Positions 39,394 through 63,512 of a stretch of DNA of 64,000 nt are shown in pieces; within the stretch, counting starts at the first letter, position 1, and each line of letters begins with the position of its first letter. Location: positions 205,056 to 269,055 of the forward strand of contig CAZCNN010000001.1 of NCBI GenBank assembly GCA_964500505.1. The letters are read 5' to 3'. Source of the stretch: an uncultured Bdellovibrionales bacterium. Lineage in GTDB: Bacteria > Patescibacteriota > Minisyncoccia > Moranbacterales > UBA1568. The position numbers and the translations under genes were made by a program. The notes under the pieces were generated by a model that searched no databases, was not told the DNA's origin, and saw only the letters and a list, made by a program, of their open reading frames with translations.

Positions 39394-39430
39394 AAAAAAG
39401 CCGGTCTTGCTCTGGGGCGAGACCGGCTTC
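39394..39430 (-). terminator. Intrinsic terminator inside the long lepA-upstream non-coding region
   Basis: On the minus strand the hairpin AGCCGGUCU-CGCCCCAGAGCA-AGACCGGCU is followed by UUUUUU. It lies ~210 nt downstream of the stop of the 39650..40303 gene. Confidence 0.5.
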
Positions 39431-39649
39431 TGTCTACTGTTTCACTTCTTCATCATCCGCGTGTAACAGCAAAAAGAAATCGACCTCGCTTCTCCCAGAA
39501 GAAGAAGCCAGTCATAAACATGAAACACATGGAAATGGTAGTCGAAATTTGTTGCATAAATGTATTCTCAAATTATCAAGACAAGGAGAAAGTGTCAACT
39601 CCATACATGAAACAATCCTCCACCAAAGTCGAGACTCGGCCTACGACCT

Positions 39650-49032: not shown

Positions 49033-49968
49033 TCATAGTCCTTCGTGTACAAATTCTTCGAGCGCCTCTGTGTAGTGACGGAGCTTCGGTCGTTTGGTAT
49101 TGAGGAGCACGGAACAACTTGGTCGACGTGCTGGACGCGGAAACGTCTCGCTTGTCACTGGCTGTACCACTATGTCCTTTTCCGCAAACGCGTAAAGCTC
49201 TTGCACGGCTTCATACCACGTCGCTCCACCCTCATTGACCAAATGGTACGTACCCCAATCACTCTCAGATTCGATCAGCTCTTTGGTAGCCTCTGCGAGG
49301 TCTGGTGCATAGGTAAAGCAACTTTTCTCATCATCTACGGCCTGCACCTCCGTTTTGGTTTGTGCCTGCTCAAGCATAACCGCAAAGAAACTGCGCTTGG
49401 CTTCTGGACTCTTCCCTGGTCGCCCAAAAAGCTTGGAAAGACGGATGAGATAGTAGTCGCTCGCCGCTTCTCGCACAGCACGCTCCCCAGCGTACTTGCT
49501 CTCGCCATAACGAGAGAGCGGGTTTGGGAGAGCCTCTTCATTATACCCTACTTGGTTCGTTGAACCAGCCCCACAGCACCCTCCGCCACAACAGCCCGTT
49601 TCCGCCTTGTTGGCCTCGAGTGCCCCATCAAACACGTAATCGGTCGAATAGTGTACGAGTATATATCCCAGTTTCTTGCTCAGTTGAGCCAAGAACTTCG
49701 GTACTTCACGGTTGAGGAGGAGCGCCTTTTTATATTCCTCGTCATCTGTTTCGCACTTGTCGACCGCGTTGTAAGCGACAGCATTTACGACGATAGCAGG
49801 TCTCAGGGCTGTAATTTTGGTCTCAGCCAAGGGGAAATCCGTGATATCGATATCTTCCCGGTCCCAGGCCGTCACTTCATACTTGTCCCCATCAGAAAAA
49901 GCCCGGACCAGCTCCTGGCCGAGCATCCCGAAACTCCCGAGTATCAACACCTTCTTTTTCTCTATCAT
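49033..49968 (-). CDS. rfbD: dTDP-4-dehydrorhamnose reductase (RmlD) with a Gly/Cys-rich insertion
   Basis: It has the Rossmann N-terminus ILGSFGMLGQEL and the catalytic YSTDYVFDG...SRYGESKYAGE. An extra segment ETGCCGGGCCGAGSTNQ lies between the conserved blocks. Confidence 0.8.
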   Translation of the reverse strand: MIEKKKVLILGSFGMLGQELVRAFSDGDKYEVTAWDREDIDITDFPLAETKITALRPAIVVNAVAYNAVDKCETDDEEYKKALLLNREVPKFLAQLSKKLGYILVHYSTDYVFDGALEANKAETGCCGGGCCGAGSTNQVGYNEEALPNPLSRYGESKYAGERAVREAASDYYLIRLSKLFGRPGKSPEAKRSFFAVMLEQAQTKTEVQAVDDEKSCFTYAPDLAEATKELIESESDWGTYHLVNEGGATWYEAVQELYAFAEKDIVVQPVTSETFPRPARRPSCSVLLNTKRPKLRHYTEALEEFVHEGL

Positions 49969-50023
49969 TTGGCTATTTTAGCAGAAAAACTCATTCCTTG
50001 AAATTCGTCGAGACGCTCCTGCA

Positions 50024-50386
50024 TTATTGAAACTGCCCGTTTTGTTTTTCACGAATCTTTGGAATTTTGTGATCGAGGGCCTGCATAATATCGACGTTTA
50101 GTGCCTTGGCCAACATGAAAGTACAGATAACGACATCAGCAAACTCATCCTGCAAATCAGTCGGTGCATGATCCTTCATCTTGTCCTTACGCTGTCCGCC
50201 TATTGATGCCAAGACTTCATCACACAGTTCGCCATACTCTTCTCCTAGTTTAATGATCCGCGCAAACATGTGCTCCCGCTCACTGAAATCATCCTCCCGA
50301 AGCGCTCGAAACATCGCATCCTGCTCGTCGATAAATTTTTGGAGTTCTTCTATGGTCATACGCCCAACAGTTACTCTTTTGCTCAT
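50024..50386 (-). CDS. MazG-like nucleoside triphosphate pyrophosphohydrolase (small single-domain form)
   Basis: It has the EExGE-type motif region (LGEEYGELCDEV) and DEFADVVICTFMLA, typical of MazG-like all-alpha NTP-PPases. Confidence 0.7.
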   Translation of the reverse strand: MSKRVTVGRMTIEELQKFIDEQDAMFRALREDDFSEREHMFARIIKLGEEYGELCDEVLASIGGQRKDKMKDHAPTDLQDEFADVVICTFMLAKALNVDIMQALDHKIPKIREKQNGQFQ

Positions 50387-50413
50387 TATACCACCCCTCT
50401 TTCTTCTCTCACG

Positions 50414-50453
50414 AATAACTCATCTATCCACGACCGTTAAGAGATGAGTTACT
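50414..50453. repeat. Copy 1 of a ~40-bp palindromic repeat (AATAACTCATCTAT-N-AGATGAGTTACT) in the mazG 5' leader
   Basis: aataactcatctatccacgaccgttaagagatgagttact contains a 9-bp inverted repeat aactcatct/agatgagtt with a 16-nt spacer. It is ~90% identical to copy 2. Confidence 0.6.
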
Positions 50454-50474
50454 ACAAAAAACAGAAAATCTTAT

Positions 50475-51065
50475 CTACTCCAACTGAAATGTCTTCCGTA
50501 ACCGCATATCATTCTCGATATCGCTTGCAACGATATACACCAACTCTTTACCTGCTTTATACCGAGTTTTCAAAAGCGAGATGACCTCCTCACATTCGTA
50601 CGGATATACCCAAACACTATCTTGGAGTTTCTCAAAACCAAACACCTTCATATCTATTCTGATACGATCACGTGCAGATCGCCTCTTTTCAGCAATATCA
50701 AAAATAACAATTCTCCACTTCTTATCCCATCGTCCACTCTTGATTCGCTTCTCCCGTAATTGGTACTTCAGTAATTCTTGTTGACCCTTATCCGTAAGAT
50801 ACGCCCGTGTCTCACCATTTTTGACAACAATTCGTACCATCCCACGTCGCTCCAAACTCTTCATTGTTCTCCGTATATATGACGGGATTTGATATCGAGG
50901 CGCCACCAAACGTTCGTATCCACGAAATATCCTTACTACTTGAAAAACTCCTGGCGCCATCATGCCGACCCCTATTACTCCTGCCACTCCAAGAGCACCA
51001 AGAATTATTCTCGCTACCAATCCATATGAATCAGTTTCTCTTGTTTGTTTTTCTACCCGTTTCAT
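50475..51065 (-). CDS. PaaX-like transcriptional regulator (winged helix plus PaaX-C-like domain) with an N-terminal transmembrane segment
   Basis: The wHTH is YIRRTMKSLERRGMVRIVVKNGETRAYLTDKGQQEL. The C-terminal block KWRIVIFDIAEKRRSARDRIRIDMKVFGFEKLQDSVWVYP resembles the PaaX C-terminal domain. The N-terminal hydrophobic helix is LVARIILGALGVAGVIGVGMMAPGVF. Confidence 0.55.
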   Translation of the reverse strand: MKRVEKQTRETDSYGLVARIILGALGVAGVIGVGMMAPGVFQVVRIFRGYERLVAPRYQIPSYIRRTMKSLERRGMVRIVVKNGETRAYLTDKGQQELLKYQLREKRIKSGRWDKKWRIVIFDIAEKRRSARDRIRIDMKVFGFEKLQDSVWVYPYECEEVISLLKTRYKAGKELVYIVASDIENDMRLRKTFQLE

Positions 51066-51074
51066 AACTTTTCT

Positions 51075-51114
51075 AATAACTCATCTATACACGACCGTGA
51101 AGAAATGAGTTATT
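51075..51114. repeat. Copy 2 of the ~40-bp palindromic repeat, 10 nt upstream of the PaaX-like gene start
   Basis: aataactcatctatacacgaccgtgaagaaatgagttatt is the same palindrome and spacer length as copy 1. Confidence 0.6.
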
Positions 51115-51153
51115 CGCATATGAAGAGAAAGCGTGTTACTTGATATCAGTAGC

Positions 51154-51804
51154 TCAATACTGGGAAAAGTCTTGAGTTGAGCCTTCGGTCATGTCGACAT
51201 ATTTGATGCCAAGTGGCTCGAGGATCATGGTCGGGATGCGGCGGGTGGGTCCGAGTTCTATCCCCTGGCGAAGCATTCCGTCGTGAACCGGGAACACCAC
51301 TTTTGGCTTGATGAGTTTGGCGTACTCAATCGCCTCTGAAAGCTTCATCCATGGCCCCGCCACTGGCAGAGCGAGGATGGTCACTGCCTTCTCTGGATTG
51401 TGAAATGAGTCACCCGGATAAAAGAGTGTTCTATCGATAAAAAATCCGGTATTCTGCACTACTGGTAAATCATGATGGATACAGGCGTGCTCACTCCCAC
51501 TACTCTCGACACTCACACCCCGTACCTCTACCGTCTCTCCGTCCGCGATGGACGTATAGGTGATACCTGCTCCATCCAATATTTTCCCTACTCCGATATG
51601 TGTAATAACCTGCGCCTCCGGATTCTTGGCAAGAATAATTTGGAGTGCCTCGACATGGAGGTGATCCGGATGCTCATGTGTTATGAGTATCGCATCAATC
51701 CCCTCTACCATCGGGGTCTCATTATAGTTCCCTGGGTCAGTGAGTATCCACACTCCCTTTACTTCGATGAGCAGACAACAATGGCCAAATTTGGTGATGA
51801 TCAT
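51154..51804 (-). CDS. MBL-fold metallo-hydrolase
   Basis: It has the HxHxDH motif (ILITHEHPDHL) plus downstream His/Asp ligands (HDG, SGSEHA). Confidence 0.8.
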   Translation of the reverse strand: MIITKFGHCCLLIEVKGVWILTDPGNYNETPMVEGIDAILITHEHPDHLHVEALQIILAKNPEAQVITHIGVGKILDGAGITYTSIADGETVEVRGVSVESSGSEHACIHHDLPVVQNTGFFIDRTLFYPGDSFHNPEKAVTILALPVAGPWMKLSEAIEYAKLIKPKVVFPVHDGMLRQGIELGPTRRIPTMILEPLGIKYVDMTEGSTQDFSQY

Positions 51805-60896: not shown

Positions 60897-61213
60897 ACGA
60901 CTATAAAAATTCAAAGCCCAAATTACAAACACCCAACAAAATCCAAAACTCCAATGACCAAAAACCAAATTCCAGAAACTTTAGGAATTCCCCACTTTCA
61001 CCCACTTTTCTTATCTACCTCCACATTTTATACCACCGAGAGACACAGCGTCAACCCCGCACCTTTTTGGCTTAAAAGAGACCTATTGTCGAAAAGAGTA
61101 TGAGTTATACACCTCACCACGAACAAAAAGGTGTCGGGTCAACACAAAAGTTATTCACCCAGTGAAATTGCTCATACTTGAGCGCTGGCAAAGCCAGTAT
61201 TTCACCGGGTAAA

Positions 61214-61243
61214 CCAAAAAAACGGCCTTTTCAGGCCGTTCTT
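61214..61243 (-). terminator. Intrinsic terminator at the downstream end of the low-GC island
   Basis: On the minus strand AACGGCC-UGAAAA-GGCCGUU is followed by UUUUUUU. It lies ~25 nt after the stop of the 61264..61650 gene. Confidence 0.55.
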
Positions 61244-61263
61244 AACCTATATCCACACTTCTA

Positions 61264-61650
61264 TCATCTCTGACCCTCAAGAATCTTTACCCTCAGACTA
61301 AGCTCATCTATTCTTTTTGTATATTTTTCATACTGCCTAGCACTATCCCTGTAATAGTCAAAAAAGAATGGAATAGCAGCAAAGAAAAATCCAATTATGA
61401 TGACTGTTGCGACAGTCATCATAAAATTCATTGCCTTATTCTGACTTTTTTCAGATAGAATTAGTGATTTCCGAATATCCCTAGCTTTATCTTCAAGATT
61501 CTTTGTTTTTTCTTCAAGAACGTAAATTCTATCTGCTGTTTTTGCAGAACCACCACTCGCTAATGAAAAATTTGACTTGCTAGCATCTGAAGTCCCAATC
61601 CCAGTCGAAGCTTCTGTTATAAGTCCATCAAACATTTTCATGATACTCAA
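61264..61650 (-). CDS. Small hypothetical protein with a coiled coil, one TM helix and a second coiled coil (island gene 4)
   Basis: It is 128 aa with a TM at MMTVATVIIIGFFFAAIPFFF, flanked by charged helical segments. It lies in the low-GC region. Confidence 0.5.
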   Translation of the reverse strand: MSIMKMFDGLITEASTGIGTSDASKSNFSLASGGSAKTADRIYVLEEKTKNLEDKARDIRKSLILSEKSQNKAMNFMMTVATVIIIGFFFAAIPFFFDYYRDSARQYEKYTKRIDELSLRVKILEGQR

Positions 61651-62077
61651 TTACAATAGATGTACCCTCATCAATAATTTCATCGTCTAAAAATACCTTC
61701 ACGACGTACTTTCCGGCAATTACGAATGGAACCCCTACAAGATTTGCAATGAAATTAGCTCCTCCTTCAGTGTTTTTAACTTCAACCATACCCCCGACCG
61801 AAACCACTAGTTTGTTGTCGGGTGATACTATTTCAACTTTTACCTTGTGCGTGCCGACTTCACTGGTCACATTTAACGAAATAGCGAACCCTGGCTGTAC
61901 AACAGGCAGTCTTGTGGTAATGATCTTGTCAAATATACCTATAACACTCAGTTTTCCTTCTTGCGAAAAAAAAGCATTCTCACTCACATGTACAAAATTT
62001 GTTTTTTTCATATTCTCATATTCAAAAAATGACGGTTGCGGTACTACCGTGAGAATTAAGCGCGTATGCAACAACAT
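61628..62077 (-). CDS. Hypothetical beta-rich protein (island gene 3); the likely start is the internal MKKTNF near 62011
   Basis: It has alternating hydrophobic and polar beta-strand-like segments (KVKVEIVSPDNKLVVSVGGMVEVKNTEGG). No motif recognised. Low GC. Confidence 0.5.
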   Translation of the reverse strand: MLLHTRLILTVVPQPSFFEYENMKKTNFVHVSENAFFSQEGKLSVIGIFDKIITTRLPVVQPGFAISLNVTSEVGTHKVKVEIVSPDNKLVVSVGGMVEVKNTEGGANFIANLVGVPFVIAGKYVVKVFLDDEIIDEGTSIVIEYHENV

Positions 62078-62429
62078 CGCTCATTGCTTTCTCATCCTTA
62101 ACAGGATATGGGAGATCAACAACATATGTACATGGAGAAATACCTTGGATTTGAAAAAGAATTCCACTTCGAAGTAACTCAGCCTCGACACCTGAACCTG
62201 CGTATGTAGAGTAACTTCCTTCTCCTACATAGGATGTTACGGTAACCGTATAAAGAGCATCAGTGTCAGCACTAAACGACAATTCACCAGAGAGCAACAC
62301 TACTCCACCCGCTTGACTTACAGCCGACGTAACTTTTCCCTGTGACTCCCAATTTACGATGTAGAAATTATGCATACGGTTTTGTGTTATCAGTCTATTC
62401 ATTGTTGCGCGTCCAGTCCGAGCGGTCAA
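62022..62429 (-). CDS. Hypothetical Ser/Thr/Gly-rich beta-rich protein (island gene 2)
   Basis: It is 135 aa. No motif recognised. It overlaps the downstream gene's track start. Confidence 0.45.
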   Translation of the reverse strand: MTARTGRATMNRLITQNRMHNFYIVNWESQGKVTSAVSQAGGVVLLSGELSFSADTDALYTVTVTSYVGEGSYSTYAGSGVEAELLRSGILFQIQGISPCTYVVDLPYPVKDEKAMSDVVAYALNSHGSTATVIF

Positions 62430-62454
62430 CTATCAGCCTTTCAAGCCTAAAAGA

Positions 62455-63477
62455 CTACTTCCATCCCTGATTGATGTTTCGCCAAATGATCTGTTCGTGC
62501 TGAACATTTATCATACCCTGCGGGGTCTGCTGAGGCACCATTTGCTTGTGTCTCTTGAGTTCCAGGGTAATCCCAAAGTAGTTGCTATTCTCTGTGGATT
62601 CCACAAAAGCGATTTGGTACTCTTTACGACTTTCCATCTTGCCTTCTATCTCAGTATCCGCATTCCAAGCCTCTGTTACTTTCATCTCACTACTATACGC
62701 CTCGTATACCTCAGTCATCAGGCCCGAGAGCTCGACATCAGCCTCGACCACAGACTTGATACCCAGATCCTCTTTGGCCTCCTTACGACCGATGTAGTAT
62801 TGGTGTGAATAGAGCTTCTCGGTCAAAAACTCGATTACTTTCTCGATCTCATCCTCTTTCATGGGTTGCTTGTGACTCTTAAGAAGTCGCTTGGCCAAAA
62901 TCTTGATGAGGTTATGGGTCCGATTGACATTGCCCAATGCAAGCGGGTGTATAGAGGGATTGCTCTCTACGAATTTGTTGAAAATCTTTGTCAATTCCTC
63001 ATCACTCTTGATACCAAACTTGTTTTTGGCCAAGTCAAAATAGCTCATCACCTCTTCCACTGAGATAGGGATGCGATTCTGGGGATTCTGGGGATCAACG
63101 GGATTGAAAAAGTTTGAAGTCGAAGGGTCAATGGGCGAGAGTTCACTCATGTCACTCATCACGATTTCATCTGCCCCCAGAGCAATCATGGTCGCAGCGC
63201 TATGGGCTTTGTATGGTATGACCACTGAAAAATGTGTGCAGTACTCTCGAATCATGGATACCAGTCGCCATGGCACCATTGTATCGCCCCCAGAGCTATA
63301 GAGTACCAGGTCTATTTTTTCTGTCTTTCCAATCTTCCGAAGCTGCGCACTGATAATAGGAATGATATCTACGGCCACACGCGCATTCACCGGACCCTGC
63401 CGATCACTCGTCACATAAGTCACCACTCGGGAACCGCGGAGTGCTTCCATTTTCTTGATCAGGTCGTTCCGTTCCAT
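62455..63477 (-). CDS. SDH/S49-type ClpP-fold serine peptidase with a ~170-aa uncharacterised C-terminal domain (island gene 1)
   Basis: IDLVLYSSGGDTMVPWRLVSMIREYCTHFSVVIPYKAHSAATMIALGADEIVMSDMSELSPIDP matches the serine-dehydrogenase-proteinase/S49 core. It has no TM helix. Low GC. Confidence 0.6.
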   Translation of the reverse strand: MERNDLIKKMEALRGSRVVTYVTSDRQGPVNARVAVDIIPIISAQLRKIGKTEKIDLVLYSSGGDTMVPWRLVSMIREYCTHFSVVIPYKAHSAATMIALGADEIVMSDMSELSPIDPSTSNFFNPVDPQNPQNRIPISVEEVMSYFDLAKNKFGIKSDEELTKIFNKFVESNPSIHPLALGNVNRTHNLIKILAKRLLKSHKQPMKEDEIEKVIEFLTEKLYSHQYYIGRKEAKEDLGIKSVVEADVELSGLMTEVYEAYSSEMKVTEAWNADTEIEGKMESRKEYQIAFVESTENSNYFGITLELKRHKQMVPQQTPQGMINVQHEQIIWRNINQGWK

Positions 63478-63512
63478 ACTGCAAATGAGTTATATATCGC
63501 TAAACACCATCA

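Follow-up and report, generated by a model that had tools for sequence, protein, structure and literature searches.

PaaX, which represses phenylacetate catabolism, acts as a dimer on its own and other promoters, where its operator, TGATTC-N27-GAATCA, consists of widely spaced inverted repeats (PMC9493321). In ToxR and CadC, a winged-helix DNA-binding domain is tethered to the membrane by one hydrophobic segment, the order being a cytoplasmic DNA-binding domain, a transmembrane helix and a periplasmic sensor. In a third described system, the RAYTs (REP-associated tyrosine transposases) are HUH-Y1 enzymes, and REP copies are scattered, numbering from tens to hundreds. The locus considered here lies in a 64-kb window, i.e., the whole stretch of DNA that was analysed, from contig CAZCNN010000001.1. 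It comprises a gene for a 196-amino-acid (196-aa) PaaX-like protein (50475..51065, minus strand) and two near-identical palindromes, one on each side of the gene. This work indicated that palindromes on both sides are the rule for genes of PaaX-like membrane-anchored proteins across Patescibacteria, the bacteria of the candidate phyla radiation (CPR). We consider it somewhat better than an even chance, at about 0.55, that these palindromes are cognate operators of the shortened PaaX-like repressor encoded between them, which would give autoregulation. Positions are given in the numbering of the window, and L-numbers designate homologous or related loci fetched for comparison.

In the window, a repeat search revealed the two near-copies at 50414-50451 and 51075-51112, with 92% identity across 38 nt, each being an inverted repeat with arms of 17-19 nt and a centre of 2 nt. 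The pattern AACTCATCT-N16-AGATGAGTT matched at 50417-50450 without mismatch and at 51078-51111 with one mismatch, and was absent from 100 shuffles, while a scan of the full window for palindromes of 34-36 nt returned only these two of this type. The upstream palindrome (copy 2, 51077..51112) and the downstream palindrome (copy 1, 50416..50451) both have the arms TAACTCAT and ATGAGTTA, with the core ACGACCGT at 51091-51098 and 50430-50437, respectively, and neither is assigned to a strand. Every gene of this region is on the minus strand. Read in the direction of the 196-aa gene, copy 2 stops 10 nt short of the ATG of that gene (51065). Copy 1 lies 23 nt past the stop codon of the same gene (50475-50477) and 28 nt ahead of the annotated ATG (50386) of the next gene, which encodes a MazG-like nucleotide pyrophosphohydrolase (50024..50386, minus strand). 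The initial annotation had described two palindromic repeats of ~40 bp and ~90% identity, drawn at 50414-50453 and 51075-51114, just ahead of the starts of mazG and of the regulator gene, and both the repeats and their placement are confirmed by these data.

The family to which the protein belongs is large. A word-indexed search gave 154 matches, patescibacterial by their record titles, and an exhaustive search gave 823 clusters at 50% identity (E <= 1e-30). The species representatives of GTDB contributed at least 589 family loci, and in several genomes there were two paralogs or more. Of 80 homologous loci that were fetched, 63 showed a palindrome on the upstream side of the gene and 46 on the downstream side, and 40 loci belonged to both groups. 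A looser search based on the arms found exactly two copies in 51 of 66 loci. Palindromes of the family type were indeed concentrated around the gene, with 101 in the 45 kb adjoining gene ends (within 260 nt) versus 3 in the other 382 kb of flank, a density ~285-fold higher. Public annotations of family proteins are mostly hypothetical, Cas2, VapD or PaaX, and in the full-text-searchable literature, a coverage that leaves subscription journals outside, neither the family nor the palindromes around its genes were found to have been described.

Like PaaX, the protein has a central Cas2-like dimerisation domain (PF20803), here preceded by a probable winged helix, and PaaX was both its best profile match and its best fold match. 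Its layout comprises a charged N-terminal tail, ~25-32 uncharged hydrophobic residues (13-44), a recognition helix (61-73), a beta-wing (77-90) and a Cas2-like ferredoxin-fold domain (113-196) with an invariant D123. In Pfam, residues 112-183 matched PaaX_M, which is this central domain, with 69.4 bits (cut-off 24, E 2.8e-19). The putative winged helix was matched weakly, by HTH_12 only (E 7e-4, under the cut-off of that model), without a match to the Pfam PaaX N-terminal model. No Pfam match to PaaX_C was obtained either, the protein ending at residue 196; the initial label "PaaX-C-like" thus named the wrong domain. When a profile of 38 homologs was compared with PDB sequences, the best match was Escherichia coli PaaX (8a39, E 0.0012), in an alignment spanning the recognition helix (helix 3), the wing and WDxKW. 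The AlphaFold2 (AF2) model has a predicted local distance difference test score (pLDDT) >90 for most of residues 71-196, is confident from residue 61 and falls below 50 for residues 1-60. It folds the Cas2-like region as beta-alpha-beta-beta-alpha-beta, after helix 61-73 and beta-wing 77-90, and Foldseek retrieved with it E. coli PaaX 8a39 first, then Rv0674 (3kfw), then a series of Cas2 structures. Homology to PaaX was recovered by profile and fold searches alike (PF20803, 8a39, Foldseek).

Judged from these matches, the 196-aa protein is a distant, shortened relative of PaaX and not a PaaX ortholog. Unlike PaaX of E. coli W (8a39), it has no PaaX_C domain, which senses phenylacetyl-CoA, and it has gained an N-terminal hydrophobic anchor; as a whole protein it scored 31.3 bits against the cut-off of 264.55 bits of the PaaX equivalog TIGR02277 (NCBIfam). 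Its context also differs from that of PaaX: no paa genes lie nearby, the neighbours being rml, hydrolase and MazG/NUDIX genes and, elsewhere, assorted housekeeping genes, and the family occurs in Patescibacteria, often with several paralogs per genome. Likeness to Cas2 and VapD lies in the ferredoxin-like fold, in the acidic residue that closes beta-1 (D123), in motifs of the FDI and LQxSVWV type and in the Foldseek matches to Cas2. However, Cas2 models scored below their cut-offs (PF09827, 17.3 vs 23.8 bits; TIGR01573, 19.7 vs 24.5 bits), and in the family the domain comes joined to a probable winged helix and a predicted membrane anchor. Neither cas1 nor a CRISPR array was present in the gene lists of related loci or among 41 downstream neighbours. 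D123, E126, R132 and R136 are invariant in the homolog alignment, D123 occupying the position of the catalytic Asp of Cas2; E. coli PaaX is also acidic at the position aligned with D123 in the profile alignment, so that the conservation of this residue is no proof of catalysis.

As regards the N-terminus, the hydrophobic segment reaches a Kyte-Doolittle maximum of 2.14 over 19 residues, is flanked on both sides by net positive charge, and its uncharged stretch, with a median of 25 residues, is kept in 37 of 38 homologs. A membrane anchor at this end is a well supported prediction, and the transmembrane helix with which the protein was first said to begin corresponds to a real hydrophobic segment. 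This predicted tethering recalls ToxR and CadC, from which the family differs by an N-terminal position of the anchor, a short charged tail and the absence of a sensor domain.

The anatomy of the site was derived from 105 sites, all of them chosen for being palindromic, so that the paired percentage is partly built in, whereas the diversity of arm sequences is not. Three parts are common to all sites: a symmetric conserved core, a loosely symmetric 6-bp zone on each side of it, and symmetric outer arms of 7-8 bp. The core consensus is C[G/T]NN[C/A]G, mostly CGACCG (RCG-AC/GT-CGY), with a subset of GCTATAGC, CGGCCG or CGATCG; every site has C at -2 and G at +2, and the core in the window reads ACG-AC-CGT. 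Core positions 1-3 and outer positions 10-16 were nearly always symmetric, with 0-8 mismatches per position (4-8 at positions 10-16), while positions 4-9 were often asymmetric, with 19-37 mismatches per position (n=105); the 6-bp zones probably make no contact with the protein. The outer arms vary freely from locus to locus, their centres being ~27 bp apart. In an ungapped alignment, 89.8% of arm cells were complementary versus 49.4% in shuffles, and the arm covariation score, 0.938, compared with 0.13-0.18 when the partner was slid by 1-3 columns. Over the family, the symmetry of the sites is DNA-like rather than RNA-like. In sequence, their layout is analogous to that of the PaaX operator, with arms of ~7-9 bp some 27 bp apart set beside TGATTC-N27-GAATCA; the family site differs by its extra conserved central core and by the second copy downstream of the gene.

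The arms were found to follow the protein clade, across core types. Helices of the PRQRLxETASRL type are accompanied by TTGTTTA arms in combination with each of the cores CGACCG, GCTATAGC and CGGCCG. The KLKYSINxSF helix occurs with TTACCTA arms, the RQKEYVSSSASK helix with ACGTTAT arms, and the helix of the window protein, PSYIRRTMKSL, and those of its relatives with (A/T)ACTCAT arms; paralogs of one genome have different arms. A sister subfamily is represented by L118 (2761-3485), with a protein of 183 aa, 33% identical to the window protein and without a strongly hydrophobic N-terminus. Three palindromes, a pair upstream of the L118 gene and a third over its stop codon, combine the CACGATCGTG core with the AACTCATCT arms of the window, and Arg-Thr at the start of the helix is common to both proteins. 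A metagenome scan with TAACTCAT-N20-ATGAGTTA (16 specified bases) gave mostly chance matches, the family core being present in 3 among the matches listed in 120 loci, namely in L177 (both window-pair sequences identical) and in L118. The correspondence between clades and arms suggests that the arms may be read by the recognition helix.

Mechanistically, the protein would be a minimal PaaX-like repressor, made of a winged helix and a Cas2-like dimerisation domain, and held at the membrane by its N-terminal hydrophobic segment. A two-fold symmetric dimer, if it forms as in PaaX, would place its Cas2-like domains over the conserved core and its winged helices on the locus-specific outer arms. Bound to the upstream site, on or against its own core promoter or start codon, and perhaps in response to some sensed signal, the protein would keep its own production repressed. 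As for the downstream site, it would then be an auxiliary operator, for which looping or a roadblock is plausible, and in the window, where it would lie against the -35 of a promoter of the MazG-like gene, it may couple mazG to the regulator. The best sigma-70-like site of the region (50385..50412, minus strand; GTGAGA, a 16-nt spacer and TATAAT with TG before it; 10/12 matches) is a consensus match only and not evidence of function; its -35 abuts copy 1 and its -10 overlaps the annotated MazG-like ATG. Since homologous MazG-like proteins have 108-110 aa, a mazG start at Met10 (50359) is probably likelier than one at 50386, and copy 1 would then immediately precede the -35 of the mazG promoter. 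The autoregulatory operator pair that was initially put forward stands as the best-supported reading, owing to the family-wide palindromes, the arms that follow the clade and the ~285-fold confinement to gene flanks.

Several observations weigh against autoregulation through such operators. A canonical -10 for the regulator gene was not found in the window, and helices 1-2 of the winged helix were not confidently modelled by AF2. The single hydrophobic segment with its positive flanks is compatible with more than one topology, and an N-in/C-out orientation would put the DNA-binding domain outside the cell. Once the Cas2-like domain was controlled for, arm similarity was weakly correlated with recognition-helix identity (rho ~0.1), and no more strongly than with the rest of the protein. 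In addition, 14 outer-arm positions differed between the upstream and the downstream copy while each copy was still symmetric, against 21 changes in one arm, and this mirrored arm change exceeds the expectation for one homodimer that reads both sites. The difference between upstream and downstream arms is kept in three genomes (L013, L016, L018), and the mirrored changes hint that arms are homogenised by intrastrand pairing, that affinities are distinct or that a second reader exists. Copy number is not always two: in L006 (2296-2804), four copies of ATCCACA…TGTGGAT are found upstream, 135-185 nt apart, within a 740-nt non-coding stretch in which no open reading frames (ORFs) separate the copies and AC and GT centres alternate, with a fifth copy on the downstream side of the gene; three identical copies occur in L062. 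The downstream palindrome was followed by a co-directional gene in 23 loci and by a convergent one in 15 (n=38), and the 41 downstream neighbours were heterogeneous and unrelated housekeeping genes (e.g., aminoacyl-tRNA synthetases, DnaE, methyltransferases, NUDIX). The downstream copy belongs to the regulator gene and not to the neighbour, and a plain role as regulator of the neighbour fails. What is left is a protein whose recognisable sites are almost only around its own gene, with no evident output.

The heterogeneity of these neighbours also ruled out a conserved functional partner gene. As for the view of copy 1 as the operator of mazG, it holds insofar as this copy abuts a mazG promoter-like site in the window, but a downstream copy is kept family-wide whatever the neighbour and its orientation.

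The presence of the gene among close relatives brings further evidence. Relatives whose regulators are as little as 66% identical still show the order rmlB ... hydrolase gene, PaaX-like gene, MazG, NUDIX or unknown gene, and rmlD, the hydrolase having a metallo-beta-lactamase (MBL) fold; in the window, the MBL-fold hydrolase gene is located at 51154-51804 and rmlD at 49033-49968, both on the minus strand. In five other relatives, with MBL proteins 69-82% identical, the PaaX-like gene is absent at the syntenic site. Among them, L210 (complete genome CP064975.1; 4706-4741) and L215 (3707-3742) show a solo degenerate palindrome, with the core CGACCG, immediately behind the MBL gene. Genomes with and without the PaaX-like gene were interleaved in a neighbour-joining tree built, without support values, from the MBL protein, which is short. 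The simplest account would be an ancestral presence, followed by repeated deletion between the flanking repeats and then by decay of the orphan site; such decay suggests that the site is maintained only where the protein is present. Site-specific gain of the gene is a possible alternative to repeated loss. The possibility had been raised that the repeats are the ends of a mobile element absent from relatives; the absence of the gene and the two solo palindromes agree with it, but deletion fits better. The rmlB-rmlD interval of Moranbacteria (L081, L083/L088, L085, L210, L212-L215) is, more generally, a variable mini-hotspot in which gene order and number change, and its contents include house-cleaning nucleoside triphosphate pyrophosphatases (MazG, NUDIX, Ham1), the MBL hydrolase, Peptidase_S51, a cyclodipeptide synthase and DUF5680.

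A different reading, which we hold to be unlikely, draws on the fact that the protein is associated near-exclusively with its own sites, that its Cas2-like acidic residue is conserved, that arm changes are mirrored, that palindromes occur solo and that the gene has apparently been lost repeatedly. According to it, the palindrome-gene-palindrome unit would be autonomous, and its protein would have an enzymatic or architectural effect on its own flanking palindromes only, instead of regulating other genes.

That the unit is a self-contained cassette is distinctly unlikely. Its Cas2-like domain would act on the flanking palindromes, which it would nick, cleave or recombine, perhaps in the form of a hairpin or cruciform, and the unit could then be excised, inverted, copied or kept as a selfish element. 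Diverse genomic contexts and orientations, the several paralogs per genome, the patchy presence among close relatives at one syntenic site and the solo palindromes of L210 and L215 are all in its favour. So are the ORF-free four-copy array of L006, the three identical copies of L062, the differences mirrored in both arms, which suggest intrastrand pairing or arm homogenisation, the four invariant residues (D123, E126, R132, R136) and the FDI and LQxSVWV motifs, which are like the Cas2 consensus. However, no recombinase or transposase is present, and synteny extends to 66% protein identity, with a divergence proportional to that of the neighbouring MBL gene. Furthermore, the copies are not dispersed (2 in 64 kb, with 3 strays in 382 kb of flank), E. 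coli PaaX, a plain repressor, is itself acidic at the position aligned with D123, and deletion between direct repeats explains the solo palindromes equally well. The likeness to RAYT/REP systems is one of layout only, in that the gene is bracketed by clade-specific palindromes and that solo and extra copies occur; in contrast to RAYTs, the family shows no conserved HUH motif, and its palindromes are near-confined to gene flanks (101, against the 3 strays). No relatives were found in 2.9 million viral contigs (IMG/VR) either, and this absence, with no PHROG match and only sub-threshold Cas2 matches in PADLOC, also ruled out a phage origin. An integron cassette with attC sites was rejected, the bracketed gene being always of the same family and no integrase being seen in the neighbour lists.

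An architectural role is very unlikely. In such a role, the membrane-anchored dimer would clamp both palindromes and tether or insulate the locus, as a roadblock or loop, each paralog marking its own locus. The conservation of the hydrophobic anchor (37 of 38 sequences), the sites on both sides whatever the orientation of the neighbour, which are essentially private to the gene, and the different arms of paralogs in one genome are compatible with it, and ToxR (PMC10629549) is a precedent for the tethering of DNA to the membrane. On the other hand, no benefit for the cell is evident, the gene is often lost without visible compensation, and the sequence predictions are throughout the same as for autoregulatory operators.

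Lastly, it is highly improbable that the palindromes work as mRNA hairpins, be it as a 5' leader, as a 3' stability or processing element or as a terminator, even though folding of the sense strand is predicted to give hairpins of -14.7 and -14.3 kcal/mol (z-scores -3.4 and -2.8), the arm covariation is compatible with them and, in L085 and L088, a -10-like element lies just 5' of the left arm, so that most of the palindrome could be transcribed. Mispairs showed no strand bias, those of the G.U type numbering 56 on the sense strand versus 53 on the antisense strand (G.T 56, A.C 53), and A.A and T.T mispairs were abundant. The central dinucleotide of the upstream sites was AC in 16 and GT in 16, so that a loop, GACC or GGUC, would be oriented at random relative to the gene. 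The tip of the putative hairpin is a palindrome in its own right, its 3 bp "paired" although positions 4-9 are often unpaired; this makes no sense for a hairpin, and a symmetric tip next to an unpaired zone suggests a protein contact patch rather than a loop. In ~21 of the 63 loci with an upstream copy, the ATG is exactly 17-18 nt from the centre of the palindrome and the arm ends at the start codon, and in many loci a -10-like hexamer occurs 6-8 nt ahead of the ATG, within the arm. With this spacing, the mRNAs would be leaderless or have a very short leader, the core promoter would be covered by the site, and only half of the palindrome would be transcribed. Over all loci, the positions of -10-like hexamers around the palindromes gave no single sharp peak, because the loci form at least two spacing classes. 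The palindromes are AT-rich (35-37% GC) and the next 9 nt contain a mean of 2.8 T, with 6 T or more in 4% of downstream copies, which thus lack a T-tract. Rfam 15 gave no match at the gathering score in the whole window, CRISPR-DR included, and a tRNA scan gave none. These features point to a site that is double-stranded DNA read by a two-fold symmetric protein. The structured RNA leader that had been offered as an alternative is disfavoured by the absence of strand bias, the random orientation of the core and the copies that abut the ATG. An intrinsic (rho-independent) terminator was ruled out as well, in view of the lack of a GC-rich stem and of a T-tract, and it was not called by a terminator scan.

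The initial annotation had proposed a possible wider regulon on the basis of an excess of the 9-mer ATAACTCAT. The count is indeed above expectation, with 5 occurrences versus 0.35 expected in the window, but three of the five are palindrome arms, which leaves two single half-sites, at 61100-61108 and 63485-63493. In the relative L088, whose regulator is 70% identical, the arms are TACTCATCT, and no half-site matching them was found upstream of mraZ; L088 has instead a stray half-site before rsmH, where the window has none. The half-site at 61100 is included in a window-specific segment of ~100 nt that repeats GGTG(T/A)ATAACT, a motif also found in L088 without CAT, and the half-site of the peptidase gene is borne by an island (61264-63477) absent from L088. 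The wider regulon is unsupported, since the half-sites differ between the window and L088 and full sites are nearly confined to gene flanks.

Regarding the same region, the segment upstream of mraZ (60969-61263) has ~100 nt in excess of L088, with a second copy of GGTG(T/A)ATAACT and apparently two tandem promoter-like sites of the TTGAC type. The island at 61264-63477 carries, between pepA (Peptidase_M17) and mraZ, four minus-strand ORFs, encoding a protein of 128 aa, a DUF6941 protein of 149 aa, a protein of 135 aa and an SDH-type ClpP-like serine protease of 340 aa. It is a small inserted island, given that in L088 pepA is directly followed by mraZ. Within it, a near-perfect palindrome of 34 nt (61393-61426, AATTATGATGACTGTTGCGACAGTCATCATAAAA) does not belong to the CG-NN-CG family.

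Gene regulation in Patescibacteria is largely uncharted, and few recognisable regulators are encoded by these bacteria. As nearly every member of the family is located beside its presumptive binding site, the family offers hundreds of natural protein-site pairs, with a fixed architecture and diverging arms. Such a data set could serve to study the recognition code of winged helices and could, in a simple way, make regulator/operator pairs of uncultured CPR bacteria tractable by experiment for the first time. A common misannotation of the family as CRISPR Cas2 would be corrected as well. Should the protein turn out to cleave or recombine its palindromes, or to tether DNA to the membrane, it would represent a new type of element and, in the case of cleavage or recombination, a non-HUH counterpart of RAYT/REP systems.

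Two other inverted-repeat-like features of the window may be mentioned. Between the stop codon of the MazG-like gene and the start of rmlD, a weak half-palindrome-like match (49984-50011, …GAATGAGTTTTTC on the coding strand) is 71-76% complementary to the arms; the 7-mer AACTCAT occurs 15 times in the window, so that this match may be due to chance. At 39396-39431, a GC-rich, terminator-like hairpin, AAAAGCCGGTCTTGCTCTGGGGCGAGACCGGCTTCT, bears no relation to the palindromes and the gene described above.

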